From Peptococcaceae bacterium BICA1-8 (lineage in GTDB: Bacteria > Bacillota > Peptococcia > Peptococcales > BICA1-8), in contig JUEF01000030.1 of the NCBI GenBank assembly GCA_000802045.1, positions 11,767 through 75,766 on the forward strand: DNA of 64,000 bases. Reading direction: 5' to 3'. The translations under genes and the position numbers were made by a program. Below the pieces are notes generated by a model. That model was given only the letters and a program-made list of their open reading frames with translations. It was not told the DNA's origin and did not search any database. Shown in pieces: positions 9,045 to 52,018 of this stretch. Numbering within the stretch: position 1 is the stretch's first letter; each line of letters starts with the position of its first letter.

Positions 9045-9890
9045 GCCTCATCTTTCCGAGTCATGGTAGACGCATCGGTTACCCGACGCACCGGGCTCCT
9101 CGAGAATACTCCCTTCCGTAATCGGCTATCATTAATAGCCTCTTGGTATTTTTCGCAGTGAGGTTGGCACCATTTATCCAGCCCTGCATGTCCGGTAGGT
9201 GTTTCCTTTGCAAATTGCGTATTCCCGTTAATCCCTTCCCCATGTAGCCGGCTCTCTCGACCTCATAGTAATATGGATTAATCCGACTTCCTATAGGTCT
9301 TCGGTCAGCCTCTTTGTCGATTGCACATTCCTACCAATAATATTTATATAACTGGAACCTATAGGATCTCCCAAGTTCCGGATACTTCTCTCCATACATG
9401 CCACGTTCTAGGACCCCGACAGACCCTCCAAAATCTCACCAATAGCGATTTTTTTGTATTACTTCCGTGACATTAAACACGTCGTCATCTGCATTTTCCT
9501 CTGTTTCCAGAGTCCACGGTTAACGGGGCTCAATTGTGCTTCAGGGATTACGGTCTCCCTTATGGCCTATATGGTTCTCTAGGTAAAGAATCTAAGCGAT
9601 TCACACAAAAACTAAAAAAAGGTTTTTGGTTCTCTGCTTATGTGTACATTCACCTAGCAGTTACCAGTTTCGGCGCAACACTCGATATGGGTGGCTGGTT
9701 AGGCCTTGCCCAACAGGGACTTTCACCCTGCAAGAAGTACCAAACTTCGCTTGGCGTACTAACGTTCCCGGCATTCCCGACGCTCACCAACCTTAACGCC
9801 TTACCCAATAGGGTGAGTGTGGTCCGGCATGCTACTTGATTAAACTATACCGGACCCGTAAGTGGGAATGGACGTGTTAGCCGGGGTAGC
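9045..9890 (-). ncRNA. GC-rich ORF-free structured segment, family unassigned (degenerate group-II-intron-like or other large ncRNA, or decayed DNA)
   Basis: About 0.85 kb with no credible ORF in six frames and many local hairpins. On the minus strand, GAGCCCGGU-GCGUCGG-GUAA-CCGAUGC (9058-9098) resembles a domain-5-like GNRA hairpin with an AGC base. GGGUGAAAGUCCC lies near 9717-9729. Confidence 0.3.
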
Positions 9891-16986: not shown

Positions 16987-17034
16987 CAAAAGGGCGACTA
17001 TAAACTATTGACCATAGACCATAGACTATTATAA

Positions 17035-17075
17035 GTCACCAGTCACTAGTGACTAGTCACTAGTCACTAGTCACT
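17035..17075. repeat. ACTAGT-containing heptamer tandem array (CACTAGT/GACTAGT)
   Basis: gtcaccagtcactagtgactagtcactagtcactagtcact, preceded by accatagaccatagactatt (17011-17030). Confidence 0.85.
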
Positions 17076-19406: not shown

Positions 19407-19440
19407 ACCACTAGTCACCAGTCACTAGTCACTAGCCACT
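19407..19440. repeat. ACTAGT-containing heptamer array
   Basis: accactagtcaccagtcactagtcactagccact. Confidence 0.8.
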
Positions 19441-20714: not shown

Positions 20715-20734
20715 GCATCACTCCTGTTTATTTT

Positions 20735-20767
20735 AGTTACTTGTGACTAGTTACTAGTGACTGGTGG
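20735..20767. repeat. ACTAGT-containing heptamer array
   Basis: agttacttgtgactagttactagtgactggtg, with related cagtgtccagtgaccag at 20808-20824. Confidence 0.75.
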
Positions 20768-22494: not shown

Positions 22495-22525
22495 GACTAT
22501 AGACAATAGACTATAGACTATTGTC
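22495..22525. repeat. CTATAGA-type repeat / hairpin between convergent genes
   Basis: GACAATAGactatagaCTATTGTC stem-loop. It overlaps the last codons of ORF 22511..23539. Confidence 0.7.
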
Positions 22526-25740: not shown

Positions 25741-26381
25741 GTGAAAACCAATGAGTTTATTATTTTAGAGAAGATTCCGCTAGACGAGATAATCAACATT
25801 ACCTGCCAAATGGCTCACAAAGTTGATGATATTGCAGAATATAGTGTTTTGCAGTTAAAACCCAAATCTATTCAAGAATTGCCAAACTTCTGGGGAATAG
25901 TAGTAAAGACAAAAAAAGATATGGGCCTTTTTACAATTGTTCTCAAAAATGCCGGACTAAAAGAACCTTTAATGCTAGAACCTTTATTAGAAAAAAATTT
26001 AGTTATTGAATATCAAAAACTAGGTAGAGTTTTACCACCTCTGGTAACAAAAAGTATGCAGAAAATTATGATTATAGTGGACGGCTTTTGGATATGTTTA
26101 GAGCATATTTAATCTCCACTTTAAAAGAAGCTGGTTGTGAGGTAAGTATTTCCGGACCCTTTTCTATAAAATGGTTGGATAATCTAAGCTTAACGCAGGC
26201 TGATAAAATAATACCCATAGATACCTTTACTTCCTTAAGCAAAGAAATAATAAGCTCTGATGCCGATACATTAATCAGCCTAAACACACCCCTCTGGCAA
26301 AGAAAAATTACATCTCTGATGTGGTCTCAGAAAATAAATAAGTATCTTATAACAGTGAATAATCAATGGCTGGATAGCTAA
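25741..26381 (+). pseudogene. hypothetical gene split by a frameshift at a T-run
   Basis: ORFs 25741..26112 and 26088..26381 overlap. Reading ...KIMIIVDGF then shifting at ggcTTTTgg continues as LDMFRAYLISTLKEAGCEV.... Confidence 0.35.
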
Positions 26382-26455
26382 TGGGCAGACATCGGGGGTC
26401 GGTGACCAGGGACCGGTGCCCGGTGTTCAGGGGACAGTTACTTTGGGGGCATATT

Positions 26456-26817
26456 ATTGCGTCTGATAGTTGCTATTTGGTTAATTTGTTGCGTCTGACA
26501 TTACTTCTTCGTTAAATTGTTGCGTCTGATTTACTTTGGGGCCATTCTCTTGCTTCTGACAAGTATTGTCATTGCGAAGGCGTTAACCTGTGGCAATCTC
26601 TGGGTCGGAGATCGCCACGCTACGCTCGCGATGACAGGATCACTAATGCGAACTAGGAAAGGAGATATACCTGCAAAAGCGCAGGAATATCCCCTTTATT
26701 GTGCGGTTAATTTGGGGGCAAAACTTTGCGTCTGACTAATACTGATTGGTTATTTGTTACGTCTAATCGGTTATCTAATTGGTCTAATAGTACTTCTAAG
26801 TGAGCATTTGCGTCTAA
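26456..26817. repeat. phased array of TTGCGTCTGA-type motifs (31-32-bp period)
   Basis: Copies start at 26456, 26488, 26519 and 26550, then 26725, 26756 and 26806. GTCATTGCGA...TCGCGATGAC inverted segment at 26568-26634. Confidence 0.7.
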
Positions 26818-26942
26818 TAAATTTTAATATTACAAAAAGATAAATACAGCATACAAAAAAGCTTGATTTAACACCGTTTTCATATATAAATCGTTGTAAC
26901 ATATTCGAAATATCATAGTATTTTTATATTACGGAGTAATAT

Positions 26943-27069
26943 GTAGGCTGTTAAAAAATATTAGATAGCTAGGCGCAAAAAGGGGGCAAAACCGGAGGCG
27001 TACTAAAGTACGTTGAGGATTTTGACCCCTTTTGGGTACGACGCTAGATGATGTTTTTTAGCAGCCTAC
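26943..27069. repeat. ~125-nt long-hairpin element, copy A
   Basis: Three-stem hairpin with conserved boxes AGCTAGGCG, CCGGAGGCGTA, TACGTTGAGGAT and ACGACGCTAG. It ends 3 nt from the stop codon at 27073. Confidence 0.75.
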
Positions 27070-27072
27070 TTT

Positions 27073-28461
27073 TTACATGAGGAATATTGCCATGACAGTA
27101 GCTCCCAACAATCCTAACATAACGGGGATAAAGTTTCTCCGTGCTAATTCCATCGGGTCAACACCACAAATAGCAGCAACTGGAATTAATCCCCAAGGTA
27201 CTACTGTTCCGCCACCTATCCAGACAGAAGACAATTGTCCTAAGGCTGCTAAGGTTCCTTTGTCAACAGCAATAGCACTGCCAAAGGTTTGGGCCAATGA
27301 GCCTACTAAAGGTAGCCCTGAGAATCCCGAACCATCCAAACCGGTAATTCCACCAATTATTACTTGAATAAAAGCTACCGGTATCCTACTTAAAGGAACA
27401 TTATTAGCTAACGCATAACCCAAATCGGTCAAAAGACCAGTTGCTTGTTCACCTAGGATAACTTTAGCTGTTCCCTCTGAACCCAAGAAGAAGAAACCTC
27501 CGATTACAATTACAGGAGCAAAGATTTTAATTCCGAACATAAAGCCATCCCGGATGTAATCAGTAATTTTCTCCAGAGAATCAGTGCCAAATTGGAGAAT
27601 AGCTGCCAAGCACATAATAGCTGCTGCCGTACCTCCAATTAAAGCAGTAGCATCTCCACCCCGTATTTCGTATAAATACATGAATAGTACATCCAAACCG
27701 AAGGCTACTGGAATCAAAATTGCAATAAAGTAAGACACCCAGGTAAATTTCTGATTAGCCTTGGCTTCCTGATCTTTGGCCATTTGTTTTTGTTCAACTT
27801 TTATTGCCTCCTGATTTTTATTTATGTCTTTTTTGAGCATGATAAATGCTGTCACACTAGCAATAATTGAACAAGTTAACCATAAAGGAATACTTGGTCC
27901 GATTACTCCTGTTGCATCGGCAAACCCTGCTGATTTAGCAGTAATAGCCGGAGCACCTTGAATAAAGTAATCTGATGATAAAGCAATACCATGACCAAAT
28001 ATATTCATAGAAATTGCTGCACCAATAACCGGAAGTCCTGCTCTAACAGCTACTGGAAGAACAATGGCACCAATTAATGCTACAGCTGGTGATGGCCAAA
28101 CAAACCAGGATACTAGAAGCATAGCAATACCTAAAACCCAAAAAGCTATATTTGCGTTAACCATTGCCCGTGAGGCTGGCTGCATTACAATATAATCAGC
28201 ACCGACATCAGCTAAAGCTTTAGACATAGCTACAACCAGGGATATAATGGCAATAATTCCCCAGAACTCATTACCGGCAGCAATTAAAGCATTATATACT
28301 ACCTGTAGCCCTCCGATAAGACTGCCTTTTGCTGATAATCCAATAACAAATAAGCCTATAAAACAAGGCAATACCGTATCCCTGCGCAAAATCATGGTAA
28401 CCAAAACTATTAATACCATGAAAACATATATCCAATGTAATGAGGTTAATTGTACTTCCAC
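27073..28461 (-). CDS. polytopic permease (ion-transporter superfamily-like; substrate unknown)
   Basis: 462 aa, more than 10 TM, with a central hydrophilic loop. Resembles DcuC/YfcC/NhaC-type carriers. Confidence 0.6.
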   Translation of the reverse strand: MEVQLTSLHWIYVFMVLIVLVTMILRRDTVLPCFIGLFVIGLSAKGSLIGGLQVVYNALIAAGNEFWGIIAIISLVVAMSKALADVGADYIVMQPASRAMVNANIAFWVLGIAMLLVSWFVWPSPAVALIGAIVLPVAVRAGLPVIGAAISMNIFGHGIALSSDYFIQGAPAITAKSAGFADATGVIGPSIPLWLTCSIIASVTAFIMLKKDINKNQEAIKVEQKQMAKDQEAKANQKFTWVSYFIAILIPVAFGLDVLFMYLYEIRGGDATALIGGTAAAIMCLAAILQFGTDSLEKITDYIRDGFMFGIKIFAPVIVIGGFFFLGSEGTAKVILGEQATGLLTDLGYALANNVPLSRIPVAFIQVIIGGITGLDGSGFSGLPLVGSLAQTFGSAIAVDKGTLAALGQLSSVWIGGGTVVPWGLIPVAAICGVDPMELARRNFIPVMLGLLGATVMAIFLM

Positions 28462-44980: not shown

Positions 44981-45025
44981 CACTAGTGACTAGTCACTAG
45001 TCACTAGTCACTAGTCACTAGTAAC
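44981..45025. repeat. ACTAGT-containing heptamer array (longest copy)
   Basis: cactagtgactagtcactagtcactagtcactagtcactagtaac. Confidence 0.9.
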
Positions 45026-45049: not shown

Positions 45050-45967
45050 ATGCTAAGTGCACTATTTTTTCTTCTAGGTTTAGCTCTTTTTTTACTTGGA
45101 TTATTTATCTTAAAGGCGGGATTAGAAAGAATAGCAAGCTTTAATCTAAAAAAAATAATACAACGCTTTACTGCTACTCCTAGCTTAGGATGTTTAACAG
45201 GAACCTTTTTAACCATGCTTTTACAATCTAGCAGTGCTGTTACAGTAATTTCCATTGGTTTAGTAGATACTGGATTGATGTCATTTGCTCAGGCTTTGGG
45301 TATTGTCTTAGGAACAAATATTGGTACCACTATTACCGGTCAAATGTTGGCCTTTCCTTTGGAAGCTTTAGGCATACCATTAGTTTTCTTGGGTCTTGTC
45401 CTAATGATTTTCGGTAATACTCTACGATCCGTAGGTTTAAACATCTGTGGTTTAGGCTTTATTTTTTGGGGGATGGATTTTATGGGGAGTGCTTTTTCCT
45501 ATATAATGCATAATCCTTTAATCCAACACTTGCTGCTTTTAACAACCCGGAGCCACCTGCTTGCAGTACTTTTTGGAATAATTTTCACCGCCATTATTCA
45601 ATCAAGTAGTGCTATGACAGGCATAGTTCTGGTTTTAGCCAAAAGTGGCCATTTAGACCTTGTTACCTCAACTGCTATCATACTAGGCAGCAATATGGGC
45701 ACCTGTATAACTGCTGTTTTAGCCAGTATTGGATCAACTACCGCAGGAAAAAGAGTAGCTATAGCCCATGTTATCTTAAATTTTTTAGGTATTGTTATTT
45801 TCTATCCAATTCTCGAGCAGTTTACAGCTCTAATGGCTCTCAGCAGCTCAGACCTGCCTAGGCAAATTGCCCACACCCATACTTTTTTTAACGTTATTAG
45901 TTCACTAGCTGTACTACTCTTTGCTGGAGTTTTTACGAAATTCATCTATTGGCTTGTTCCGGAATAA
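45050..45967 (+). CDS. Na/Pi cotransporter family protein (short form, no PhoU domain)
   Basis: Duplicated Na_Pi_cotrans motif (LLQSSSAVTVI, IIQSSSAMTGI). 305 aa. RBS GAGGTG. Confidence 0.8.
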   Translation: MLSALFFLLGLALFLLGLFILKAGLERIASFNLKKIIQRFTATPSLGCLTGTFLTMLLQSSSAVTVISIGLVDTGLMSFAQALGIVLGTNIGTTITGQMLAFPLEALGIPLVFLGLVLMIFGNTLRSVGLNICGLGFIFWGMDFMGSAFSYIMHNPLIQHLLLLTTRSHLLAVLFGIIFTAIIQSSSAMTGIVLVLAKSGHLDLVTSTAIILGSNMGTCITAVLASIGSTTAGKRVAIAHVILNFLGIVIFYPILEQFTALMALSSSDLPRQIAHTHTFFNVISSLAVLLFAGVFTKFIYWLVPE

Positions 45968-46028
45968 AAATTCGCTTATTCGTGAGCGCGTGAGCGAGTG
46001 GGCGCGCTAATACTTTAGGGAGAATATG

Positions 46029-46214
46029 CTAGGTCTGGACAATTGCTAATAAGGAAGATTTCGGGTTGGACAATTACTATGAGGGCAAATTATTGCGTCT
46101 GACAAAAATCAAAAAAAATAGGCTTATGCCTATTTTATAAACAATTTTTTTTAATATCAAAGCTTGTGTCAGACGTAAGAGCAAAACCTATGAATAACTG
46201 TCAAACGCACTAGC
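46029..46214. repeat. second phased GTCTGACA-type array, with inverted copies beyond a hairpin
   Basis: ggtctggaca (46032), gggttggaca (46063) and gcgtctgaca (46095), at 31-32-bp spacing. Inverted gtcagacg (46169) and gtcaaacg (46200). Confidence 0.6.
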
Positions 46215-46495
46215 TAGACCCATGAGTAATTGTCTGTGTCAACATTTACTAAAGGCTCAAAGTCTTTTACTATAACTATTAGAGTATTGTAATCACAAAG
46301 CATTTTTTTAGTTATGATTGTATCTGCACCTTCAGGAAGTTTACTTCCTCCATTTATTTTTACAGTTTCACATAGTTTTATGCTAGCACTATTTTCTAGA
46401 ATAATACGTAAAGCAACATAGCCTTCTTCAAAGATAATTTTTTTAACTTCACTTGTTACTGCATAGCCATTAATAGCTGCTCTATACCCATTCAT
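46214..46495 (-). CDS. hypothetical protein
   Basis: 93-aa ORF, no motif recognised. Confidence 0.3.
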   Translation of the reverse strand: MNGYRAAINGYAVTSEVKKIIFEEGYVALRIILENSASIKLCETVKINGGSKLPEGADTIITKKMLCDYNTLIVIVKDFEPLVNVDTDNYSWV

Positions 46496-47147: not shown

Positions 47148-47180
47148 GTGCTACAGTGCTACAGTTCTACAGTGCTACAG
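47148..47180. repeat. GCTACAGT octamer tandem repeat
   Basis: gtgctacagtgctacagttctacagtgctacag. Confidence 0.85.
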
Positions 47181-51884: not shown

Positions 51885-52018
51885 AATATTATAATTAACA
51901 TTTTCAGATGCAGAAAAAGGATATTTGCTTATTTATATAGAAAATAACTTAATATACTTTTATATGTTTTCTAACTTCGAACATCTAACGTCTAATTTCT
52001 AGAACGGGGGTCATACAA

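Follow-up and report, generated by a model that had tools for sequence, protein, structure and literature searches.

A 31-bp phased repeat family in intergenic DNA of uncultured subsurface Clostridia

Two intergenic loci in a 64,000-nt stretch of the Peptococcaceae bacterium BICA1-8 genome (here called the window; contig JUEF01000030.1) carry short motifs that recur in phase, one near 26.4 kb and the other near 46.0 kb. The question is whether these are sites with a role special to two places, as the comparison with iterons, partition sites and cooperative operators in the initial annotation would have it, or members of something more widespread.

The two arrays in the window

By reading the sequence and by exact search, we found exact matches to TTGCGTCTGA at 26457, 26489, 26520, 26726 and 46093 of the window. 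Both loci also contain a common long word (GGGCATATTATTGCGTCTGA at 26447 and GGGCAAATTATTGCGTCTGA at 46083). It turned out that the phased motifs and the shared word reported by the initial annotation are real, with coordinates right within 1-2 bases. With at most one mismatch, 13 cores of the TTGCGTCTGA type exist in the window, while 1.9 ± 1.3 are expected from 100 dinucleotide-preserving shuffles, none of which (0 of 100) reached 13. Tandem Repeats Finder detects a period of 31 bp over 26453-26535. We also scanned with a position weight matrix trained solely on units of the related genome Clostridiaceae bacterium BRH_c20a, with none from the window. It gave 8 window sites of 22.6-37 bits, every one inside the two loci, against a background of about 0.05-0.15 sites at ≥10-14 bits in shuffled sequence.

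The 26.4-kb array lies on the plus strand. Its outer end is abutted by a heptamer-repeat tract of the GGTGACC / AGGGACC / GGTGCCC type (26396..26436, read directly), and comparable tracts precede most single arms of BRH_c20a as well as the orthologous array there (L176). The tract is followed by an arm of four head-to-tail units (26438..26561; units 26438-26468, 26470-26500, 26501-26531 and 26531-26561), which score 34.2, 34.9, 22.7 and 28.8 bits at spacings of 32, 31 and 30 bp. Their cores read TTGCGTCTGA(T/C)A, except the fourth, which reads TTGCTTCTGACA (motif variant TTGCTTCTGA at 26550). Inside the array there is a separate insertion, a 68-bp mini-element (26568..26635, plus strand) with terminal inverted repeats GTCATTGCGAAGGCG ... 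CGCTCGCGATGAC, which is also present in the orthologous arrays L110 and L176; its right half has 18 matches in the window and the fetched loci, some of which are duplicate assemblies of one place. A degenerate extension of the arm follows on the same strand (26707..26819), including one scoring unit (26707-26737, TTGCGTCTGACT, 23.4 bits) and decayed copies whose cores were found by exact search at 26757 (TTACGTCTAA) and 26808 (TTGCGTCTAA); in the corresponding place L110 has three units after the mini-element. The phasing initially described holds for the first four sites (30-32 bp); the last three (26726, 26757 and 26808) are degenerate and only partly in phase (spacings 31 and 51 bp).

The 46.0-kb locus is a two-armed element. 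At its outer edge is an octamer-repeat tract (45981..46006, plus strand; CGTGAGCG x3, period 8, 3.2 copies), and next comes a three-unit plus arm (46011..46104), in which the outer two units, with cores GGTCTGGACA at 46032 and GGGTTGGACA at 46063, are degenerate and the inner one is intact (46074-46104, TTGCGTCTGACA, 37.0 bits), ending with the type B terminal module GTCTGACAAAAATC. The A/T-rich centre (46105..46166) contains a terminator-like hairpin (46115-46136, ATAGGCTTATGCCTAT, with A and T runs on its flanks), seen by terminator scan and folding, and both centre and hairpin are conserved in the BRH_c20a orthologue. The minus arm (46167..46262) includes units 46167-46197 (core TTACGTCTGACA, 22.6 bits), preceded by a type A module, GCTTGTG, and 46199-46229 (core GTGCGTTTGACA, 32.3 bits), as well as a third, degenerate unit (core 46231-46242). 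The corresponding inverted motifs are GTCAGACG at 46168, GTCAAACG at 46200 and, degenerate, TGTCTGTGTCAA at 46231. Inverted copies beyond a small hairpin, which had been singled out at first, are thus present; they simply form the second arm of the standard converging layout described below.

The flanking genes at 26.4 kb are an orphan pseudogene with an FNR fold and a membrane transporter, and those at 46 kb are a Na/Pi cotransporter and a small ORF; the minus arm overlaps the 3' end of a 93-aa ORF (46214-46495, minus strand). The orphan ORF was considered as an array-binding protein and ruled out, since its structure model is a confident ferredoxin-NADP-reductase fold (pLDDT 87) with 6 homologues only; it more likely serves the adjacent B12-mutase-like operon than the arrays. 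Promoter function was rejected at both loci, where sigma-70-like matches are no commoner (26.4 kb) or just slightly commoner (46 kb) than in shuffles. Rfam 15 gave no match at gathering score in the window; with the cut-off relaxed to E ≤ 1, nothing was found in 26300-27100, and 45900-46350 yielded a single match at chance level (E = 0.54).

Units, arms and orthologues in related genomes

A pattern scan of 185,579 species genomes gave 41-42-nt matches that cluster in one genome, BRH_c20a, a sister genome with about 93% identity to the window in the syntenic part. Other pattern matches (Amycolatopsis, Okeania/Dapis, coding repeats) are unrelated repeats, those of Okeania and Dapis being a different hairpin repeat. 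A 33-bp array was seen in Prevotella (GGGGCAAAATTGCGTCTGACACC). From BRH_c20a and metagenome assemblies of that organism we collected 54 non-redundant arrays with about 330 units; the BRH_c20a DNA that was fetched holds at least 50 non-redundant arrays, a count of loci retrieved by the motif itself, in which unit detection leans on the core. The carriers are uncultured anaerobic subsurface Clostridia, including BRH_c20a, the window genome and a few related MAGs. A literature search found nothing on the motif or on repeats of BRH_c20a, and the family is apparently undescribed so far.

The building block is about 31 bp long (TACTTnnGGGTnAAnnTnTTGCGTCTGACA) and is conserved in discrete blocks, a 12-bp core and two more upstream of it, with almost free positions in between. 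Information content is 1.1-2 bits at T-20, C-18, T-17, G-12, G-11, T-4 and the core and about 0.1-0.5 bit between them. Judged by reading unit variants, the consensus lacks self-complementarity apart from one near-palindrome, the 7-bp GTCTGAC. Across the 54 arrays, most same-strand neighbours (239 of 251) are spaced 29-33 bp apart with a mean of 31.25 and an sd of 0.83, equal to 3 x 10.4 bp or three helical turns. The initial annotation had allowed that genome-wide copies might show no preferred spacing; such a preference is evident, and the period of 31-32 bp and the conserved core hold robustly across the family. Double-length gaps are rare (7 of 251), indicating that the core is seldom lost from units inside arrays. 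Cooperative protein binding on the same face of the DNA at three-turn steps, as first suggested, may reasonably be supposed from this spacing and is possible. Selection for cumulative helical register was rejected, given a weak and non-significant anticorrelation of successive spacings (r = -0.12, p = 0.08).

Units are joined head to tail into arms of 2-13 units following a fixed grammar. An arm typically starts with a heptamer-repeat tract (nnCAGKG type) and ends with one of two terminal modules, type A (...GTCTGACACAAGCATTGCATG) or type B (...GTCTGATAAAATCGTG, after which heptamers usually come); both the end modules and the heptamer tracts follow a stereotyped pattern from array to array. 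In 25 of the 54 arrays two arms converge, an A-ended arm facing a B-ended arm over a short centre, 29 are single arms and none (0 of 54) diverge. Single arms typically have exactly three sites, with the end-proximal ones slightly better conserved, and the outer units of arrays decay. At variable positions, units of the same arm are more alike (0.43-0.50) than units of different arrays (0.38), and peaks of likeness at lags 3 and 6 point to 95-bp higher-order repeats and local duplication. Mirror units on opposite arms (0.37, against 0.38 for unrelated arrays) are no more alike than random pairs, so that an origin by nested insertion and selection for a hairpin were both rejected.

Each of the two window arrays is matched by orthologues at the corresponding locus, and these differ from it by clean whole-unit indels. 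The 46-kb element is the orthologue of L112 of BRH_c20a, with which its centre and inner units align; the unit numbers are 13+6 in L112 and 3+3 in the window, and in the minus arm four extra BRH_c20a units make up one clean gap of about 124 bp. The 26.4-kb array, orthologous to L110 and to L176 of BRH_c20a, shows 31-bp indels. It is absent from two relatives (L107 and L109) with no visible replacement, and L177 is without units at this locus and too diverged for comparison. The elements are inherited at orthologous positions, and most change consists of whole units, or blocks of them, being gained or lost. Among the compared loci we saw neither a target-site duplication nor a clean pair of filled and empty sites, and the outer boundaries of arrays are blurred by decayed units and heptamer tracts. 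Between the window and BRH_c20a, orthologous units diverge about as much as adjacent non-coding DNA, and thus present-day purifying selection on single sites is unsupported. In one orthologue comparison 3 of 24 core positions differ against 11 of 41 outside, which is not significant.

Neighbouring genes and competing explanations

The arrays are flanked by housekeeping genes, such as those for ETF, P-type ATPase, DapF, TsaD, DnaG/RpoD and ClpX/ClpP and his genes. For the 35 arrays with both flanks in hand, the flanking genes are mostly in tandem (25), with 6 convergent and 4 divergent pairs. The median share of the spacer filled by the array is 58%, and in tandem-gene spacers many arrays stop just 15-40 bp short of the gene on either side. 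Arms are oriented without bias relative to the flanking genes, and replication-linked polarity was rejected, given a ratio of 13:12 against GC skew. Other small repeats share these spacers (the 68-bp element with terminal inverted repeats, heptamer and octamer tracts), which fits a repeat-tolerant intergenic landscape. No recurrent or mobility genes were found in about 330 kb around the arrays or in the window, and no rep, par or transposase genes near arrays in the window or the related loci examined. Clustering of the ORFs around arrays gave solely ParA/MinD, response-regulator, ABC and MNT/HEPN paralogues; the ParA/MinD-like genes near some BRH_c20a arrays are ordinary paralogues, some with receiver or PilZ domains, and are not consistently linked to arrays. 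An autonomous partner enclosed by a minus arm and the plus arm that follows was rejected too, as the enclosed DNA encodes ETF-beta, a PHP phosphatase and a P-type ATPase, and comparing all loci with one another by blastn revealed no multi-kb repeat attached to arrays. Plasmid, phage and viral collections gave no match, which speaks against such an origin; the pattern matches in viral sequences are off in period and do not pass the weight matrix.

With slightly better than even confidence, we read both window loci from this analysis as copies of a lineage-specific, non-autonomous interspersed mosaic repeat that resembles BIME, BOX and NIME. Each unit would probably serve as the site recognised in trans by a sequence-specific protein whose gene lies elsewhere; this may be an enzyme of the transposase or nuclease type to which the element would owe its spread, or a DNA-binding protein of the host. 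The three-turn period would put every core on one face of the DNA. Slippage at the identical 12-bp cores, or unequal exchange between them, may lengthen and shorten the arrays. The elements would be largely selfish or neutral, as BIME, BOX and NIME; side effects on transcripts are conceivable, from a long imperfect hairpin at converging arms or the terminator in the 46-kb centre. Copy number and dispersal suggest that the family spread by mobility. That hundreds of units are conserved block by block speaks for a specific protein partner, and over many loci such conservation could fit a host function equally well. Neither the genes examined around the arrays (about 330 kb) nor those in the window yielded a cognate protein.

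A host function would mean that a nucleoid-associated, insulator or roadblock protein binds the cores cooperatively and coats or wraps intergenic DNA at many loci. The period with its small variance, the discrete blocks with free positions between them, the retention of arrays at orthologous loci across species and the strict orientation grammar (0 of 54 diverging) would all suit it. We nevertheless hold it to be rather unlikely, because arm orientation is unbiased (13 vs 12 for GC skew), successive spacings show no significant compensation, orthologues differ widely in unit number (19 vs about 6), outer units decay, the 26.4-kb array is missing in two relatives and no candidate protein was found. 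Also unlikely, and more so, is a genome-wide platform on which a putative protein binds one helix face every three turns and polymerises inward from both sides of the spacer, or a 31-bp unit that is itself a tiny mobile element homing beside its own copies. If the platform did exist, it would represent a new type of chromatin, insulator or roadblock system in bacteria, confined to one lineage of Clostridia, and the flanking heptamer tracts would belong to the same machinery. That the arrays are relics or miniatures of multi-site DDE transposon ends (Tn7, Mu or IS21 kind), with the unit as transposase site and TGTCAGACG... as terminus, appears improbable. The core does read TGT...ACA at the arm end, the typical three-site single arm with its better end-proximal sites would be in keeping, and arrays lie at contig ends and break assemblies like multicopy elements. 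However, the putative termini face the centre rather than outward, arms of up to 13 units go far above known transposon ends, none of about 79 arms is attached to an rve or other transposase gene or a multi-kb repeat, housekeeping genes occupy the DNA from minus arm to next plus arm, and plasmids, phages and viral contigs give no match. Ends of cyanobacterial Tn7/CAST-type transposons in particular were rejected because of the anaerobic Firmicute gene content, the lack of a transposase and the inward-facing cores.

An element acting at the RNA level, in which converging arms of transcribed arrays fold into a long hairpin for termination, stabilisation or small RNAs, is more doubtful still. Single arms, for which this hairpin is impossible, make up over half of the arrays, the likeness of mirror arms gives nothing pointing to selection for pairing, inspection by eye showed no hairpin shared by the unit variants, Rfam offers nothing beyond its chance-level match, and array orientation is not fixed relative to transcription. 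Against this stand the tightly filled tandem spacers, which make co-transcription probable, and the 46-kb element, which folds better than shuffles (z = -2.6) around its conserved terminator-like hairpin. The initial suggestion of iterons, partition sites or cooperative operators specific to the two window loci is largely refuted: direct repeats at integral helical turns in two inverted sets do resemble iteron and centromere arrays, but the sister genome has at least 50 copies in arbitrary intergenic contexts with housekeeping neighbours. Near the window loci there are no rep, par or dnaA-type genes, GC skew is negative in 32 of 32 segments with no sustained switch, and the plasmid and phage collections are silent. 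On our reading, neither origins nor iterons nor centromere-like sites are present here. A tandem duplication that decayed locally and lacks a conserved core, which the degenerate outer copies in the window might have implied, is refuted by the same unit, blocks and period at dozens of unlinked loci in several genomes.

Interspersed mosaic repeats (REP/BIME, BOX, NIME, STRR) are known from few well-studied bacteria. Taken as such a mosaic repeat, the family adds a clearly structured case from uncultured subsurface Clostridia, combining a strict three-turn period, a 12-bp core with two upstream blocks and an arm-and-end grammar with heptamer tracts like those of cyanobacteria. It would offer a tractable handle on the putative protein, on how the repeat spreads and on its effects on neighbouring genes. 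In practice, arrays break short-read assemblies, and gene callers can read them as ORFs.

Comparison with known systems

A CRISPR array was rejected, since the entire period is 31 bp, the segment between cores has conserved blocks and recurring subtypes (e.g. GGGTCTAGCT and GGGTGAACAT), and no cas genes were found among the genes examined. Ends of the Tn7, Mu or IS21 type differ as well, as the cores here face the centre and housekeeping genes lie outside the arms. A closer case is the minisatellite-bearing MITE of Porphyromonas gingivalis, which is reported to be non-autonomous and intergenic, to have a tandem short-repeat body and to carry at its boundaries the terminal inverted repeats of a known type of IS (PMC4596501). 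For our family no IS partner was found, and the arrays themselves form inverted arms. Converging elements are long imperfect inverted repeats, whereas the 29 single arms of 54 arrays have no terminal inverted repeats at all, and no autonomous element with a transposase was found in about 330 kb around arrays or in plasmids, phages and viral contigs.

The likenesses to iterons and centromeres, STRR/SDR, BOX and BIME were drawn from general descriptions of these systems. Iterons and centromere-like arrays (parC of R1, parS of pSM19035) occur once per replicon beside rep or par, and their repeats are bound cooperatively by one protein. The family shares with them short direct repeats at integral helical turns, a trait that many other systems have too, sometimes in two opposed sets, while it is spread over dozens of chromosomal intergenic sites with no rep or par beside them. 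None of the 36 window ORFs scanned has a Rep domain, and no parA/parB-type operon adjoins either window locus. Heterocystous cyanobacteria have STRR heptamer tracts and small dispersed repeats (SDR), reportedly described by Mazel et al. in 1990 and Elhai et al. in 2008. In both cases tandem intergenic heptamers with CAGT or CAGG adjoin tiny dispersed modules, and elements nest and adjoin; the phylum is different (Clostridia here), and SDRs are single 21-27-nt elements, in contrast to phased 31-bp arrays.

BOX of Streptococcus pneumoniae, with the structure boxA-(boxB)n-boxC, is a single array with a boxB of 45 bp, and we know of no enzyme that mobilises it. Like BOX, the family is modular and intergenic, with tandem inner subunits that vary in number between distinct terminal modules, but its unit is 31-32 bp, two arrays are opposed, it has A and B ends and heptamer tracts, and its sequence is unrelated. 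REP units of enterobacterial BIMEs are imperfect palindromes of 20-40 bp in alternating orientation that are mobilised by RAYT transposases. The unit of our family, in contrast, is about 31 bp, non-palindromic and arranged head to tail, with orientation switching once, at the centre; among the genes examined around arrays, which were not individually annotated, no RAYT-like (Y1 transposase) gene stood out. As in BIMEs, the repeats are extragenic, high-copy mosaics of few modules with a fixed grammar, a variable module number and no coding capacity, placed between operon genes and between convergent genes and probably co-transcribed.

Units, period and array grammar

The window holds two arrays of a ~31-bp unit that belong to a high-copy, non-coding, modular element with a fixed grammar. 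In the 26.4-kb array, direct reading found the core TTGCGTCTGA at 26457, 26489 and 26520, its variant TTGCTTCTGA at 26550, and more copies at 26726 (TTGCGTCTGA), 26757 (TTACGTCTAA) and 26808 (TTGCGTCTAA). At 46.0 kb, GGTCTGGACA, GGGTTGGACA and TTGCGTCTGACA start at 46032, 46063 and 46093, with inverted copies at 46168 and 46200 plus a degenerate one at 46231. The motif positions of the initial annotation were right to within 1-2 bases at both loci. With one mismatch or none allowed, the window contains 13 occurrences of the 10-mer; 1.9 were expected, and none of 100 shuffles reached 13. Tandem Repeats Finder called a period of 31 bp, and a repeat finder returned 32/31-bp families and a 36-nt inverted pair at 46 kb.

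A scan of one genome for each species, asking for two perfect cores spaced 30-33 bp, gave 105 stretches; roughly 26 of these, which matched over 41-42 nt, all came from the MAG Clostridiaceae bacterium BRH_c20a. Between 38 and 46 kb the window shows synteny with contig LADT01000047 of that MAG (~93% identity), and the window genome is a close relative of BRH_c20a, distinct from it. A metagenome scan added contigs 100% identical to BRH_c20a that span breaks in its assembly. The non-redundant total is 54 arrays with 330 units (arrays: BRH_c20a 50, window 2, and one each in the related loci L110 and L024), made up of 25 converging arrays, 29 single arms (units head to tail) and no diverging array; these counts rest on loci fetched through the motif, so that genome-wide density and the single-arm share are not readable from them, and unit calling hinges on the core. 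Clear family members also exist in further Clostridia MAGs (L024, L025, L046/L065). Matches in Amycolatopsis and Okeania/Dapis were rejected as unrelated hairpin or peptide repeats containing the 10-mer by chance, as were several matches inside coding repeats on the same ground. Okeania and Dapis (L052, L070, L099, L106) and Amycolatopsis (many loci, such as L007) have their own dispersed TTGCGTCTGACGC hairpin repeats with 30-32-bp spacing, in which the rest of the unit is unlike the Clostridial family. The literature yielded nothing on the motif or on repeats in BRH_c20a.

Same-strand neighbours lie 29-33 bp apart in 95% of cases (239 of 251; mean 31.25 bp, sd 0.83), with 41 spacings of 30 bp, 93 of 31 bp, 94 of 32 bp and 7 of 33 bp, and 7 more of the 251 are double spacings. 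The consensus of 157 units aligned on the core is TACTTnnGGGTnAAnnTnTTGCGTCTGACA. Information is high (1.1-2 bits) at T-20, C-18, T-17, G-12, G-11, T-4 and positions -1 to +9, and about 0.1-0.5 bit at most positions between these blocks; in the less constrained segment, several subtypes recur (GGGTCTAGCT, GGGTGAACAT, GGGGCAATTT, GGGTTGAGAT, GGGTAAGTTT). The units are conserved block-wise, with a period of three turns. Arrays with both orientations always show plus units, then minus units. Single arms have a stereotyped layout, in which an nnCAGKG-type heptamer tract is followed by 2-4 units (3 being commonest) and a type A end, GCGTCTGACAC(A/G)(A/G)(T/G)CATTGCATG. Converging elements usually carry a type A end on one arm and a type B end (GCGTCTGATAAAATCGTG, often with heptamers next) on the opposite arm.

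The 46-kb copy matches the converging grammar exactly: its plus arm has a B-type end, its A/T-rich centre holds a terminator-like hairpin, and its minus arm has an A-type end (GCTTGTGTCAGACG). At 26.4 kb, a single arm stands behind a heptamer tract (26396-26436) and is interrupted by a 68-bp mini-element (26568-26635) with terminal inverted repeats GTCATTGCGAAGGCG ... GATCGCCACGCTACGCTCGCGATGAC. The right half of this mini-element has 18 matches among the window and the fetched loci, some of which are duplicate assemblies of one place, and they often lie directly past a type A array end.

Besides, tandem 7-8-bp repeats (AGTCACT, CACTAGT, TAGTGAC, GACTATA, GGTGACC-type, CGTGAGCG, GTGCTACA) dot the intergenic DNA of the window, at 17034-17075, 19409-19440, 20734-20766, 22495-22521, 26396-26436, 44981-45022, 45981-46006, 47148-47180 and 51969-52001. 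Two of these tracts adjoin outer ends of the window arrays, and the array grammar of BRH_c20a includes the same heptamers (nnCAGKG) and an octamer, CTGTAGCA. The tracts look like the STRR heptamers known from heterocystous cyanobacteria, a likeness that one would not expect in a Clostridial genome.

Orthologous loci and genomic setting

The BRH_c20a orthologue of the 46-kb array (L112 528-1174) contains 13+6 units versus 3+3 in the window. The centre with its hairpin aligns at ~85-88%, as do the two inner units of one arm, and four extra, mutually similar units in BRH_c20a form one clean gap of ~124 bp; on the other side, the arrays share their start past the Na/Pi gene and then diverged. The 26.4-kb array, with its heptamer tract and mini-element insertion, is also present in L110 (a JGI contig, 91% protein identity) and in L176 of BRH_c20a. 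Indels of 31 bp distinguish the three copies: unit 3 is missing in BRH_c20a, and L110 is without unit 4 and has one more outer unit. The relatives L107 and L109 are without both the array and the adjoining orphan ORF. Identity at variable positions is 0.43-0.50 within an arm versus 0.38 between different arrays, and pooled identity within arms peaks at lags 3 and 6, a reflection of the 95-bp higher-order repeats that L049, L143 and L062 contain. The arrays are therefore old, vertically inherited, and remodelled by whole-unit duplication and loss. In one orthologous comparison, cores changed at 3 of 24 positions versus 11 of 41 in the rest of the unit, a difference not significant at these small numbers.

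In BRH_c20a, the genes between or beside arrays are ordinary (ETF-beta, PHP phosphatase, TsaD, P-type ATPase, DapF, RecO-like, DnaG/RpoD, ClpX/ClpP/Tig, his genes). Both flanks were available for 35 arrays, and the flanking genes are mostly tandem (25 of 35), with 6 convergent and 4 divergent cases. Arrays occupy a median of 58% of the spacer and often come within 15-40 bp of both genes. The orientation of single arms shows no link to GC skew (13 vs 12) and no strict relation to flanking-gene direction, and no multi-kb repeat attached to arrays was found. With the ORFs of related loci called mechanically, the sole recurrent families nearby are ParA/MinD-like ATPases, response regulators, ABC ATPases and MNT/HEPN pairs, which are generic paralogues. 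The spacers that hold arrays also contain repeated copies of another small inverted-repeat element, GTCATCCTGAGGGAGG...CCTTCGG...CTCAGGATGAC (L110 6400-6460 and 7720-7800, L176 5620-5710), which gene callers read as short ORFs, such as a 122-aa call at L110 6055-6423.

The window itself is Firmicute-like (~37% G+C) and codes for Hdr/Mvh-type proteins, YlbF, TrpP, lipoate synthesis enzymes and a B12-mutase-like operon with a KamB-type reactivase. It contains no tRNA gene, and GC skew is negative in 32 of 32 windows with no sustained change of sign. Its sole Rfam match is a group II intron fragment far from the arrays (D1-D4, RF02005, 83 bits, 9404-9723, minus strand), beside which Pfam found no reverse-transcriptase domain in the scanned ORFs.

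Convergent genes flank both window arrays. At 46 kb these are a Na/Pi cotransporter (45050-45967, plus), matched only in a short Logan contig, and a 93-aa ORF (46214-46495, minus). At 26.4 kb they are a frameshifted orphan gene (25741-26381, plus; two overlapping ORFs of 123 and 97 aa) and the gene of a 462-aa membrane protein (27073-28461, minus). A long imperfect hairpin (26978-27033) followed by a minus-strand T run, together at 26943-27069, is probably the terminator of the latter; it is kept in orthologues L107, L109 and L176, and the 128-bp stretch around it has an 87% match to an unrelated BRH_c20a locus (L038 366-492). The orphan protein, intact in L110 and BRH_c20a (213-220 aa), always adjoins the B12-binding mutase-like operon with the KamB-type reactivase. 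It was rejected as a partner protein of the array, having only 6 homologues among 5.8 billion proteins and a ferredoxin-NADP-reductase-like fold in a confident AlphaFold model (pLDDT 87).

Possible origin and role of the arrays

The initial annotation compared the phased sites with iterons or cooperative operators. Iterons or partition sites do not agree with the ordinary flanking genes, with the lack of rep, par, integrase or transposase domains in 36 window ORFs scanned by Pfam or NCBIfam, or with the absence of matches in 72,556 plasmids, 50,697 phages and IMG/VR. A CRISPR was rejected on the whole period of 31 bp and the block-wise conservation of the inter-core segment itself, and a known RNA on the lack of Rfam matches at E <= 1, except one at chance level. 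An RNA selected for its hairpin is contradicted by mirror units on opposite arms, no more alike than random pairs (0.37 vs 0.38 identity), and by most arrays being single arms. Tn7/Mu-like transposon ends, suggested by the TGT...ACA core and by arms of three sites, were rejected in that the termini face inward and housekeeping genes lie outside the arms.

We infer that the conserved blocks are putative contacts of a sequence-specific protein acting in trans, that identical 12-bp cores 31 bp apart would drive slippage or unequal exchange and so change unit number, and that the family may have reached many spacers through a putative mobilising activity. It would now be largely neutral and may incidentally affect transcripts. 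A host function is the chief alternative and is also possible: a putative nucleoid or insulator protein would bind cooperatively on the same face of the DNA. This reading and that of a mobilised, neutral family differ mainly in who benefits.

A possible relative and known systems

Prevotella MAGs contain an array of three 33-bp units, GGGGCAAAATTGCGTCTGACACCAAAATCTTTA (L058 1469-1567, L060 3400-3498), upstream of a 490-aa ORF that looks ATPase-like from its sequence. Their unit and the Clostridial one are alike over ~24 nt, a stretch that takes in the GGGGCAAA block, the core and a CAC extension and goes beyond what the search pattern required; the two may share descent or be bound by related proteins.

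Among known systems, BIMEs, BOX elements, NIMEs and the STRR/SDR repeats of cyanobacteria presumably come closest. To our knowledge, none of them has a 31-bp unit repeated head to tail, a single switch of orientation, or A/B end modules.
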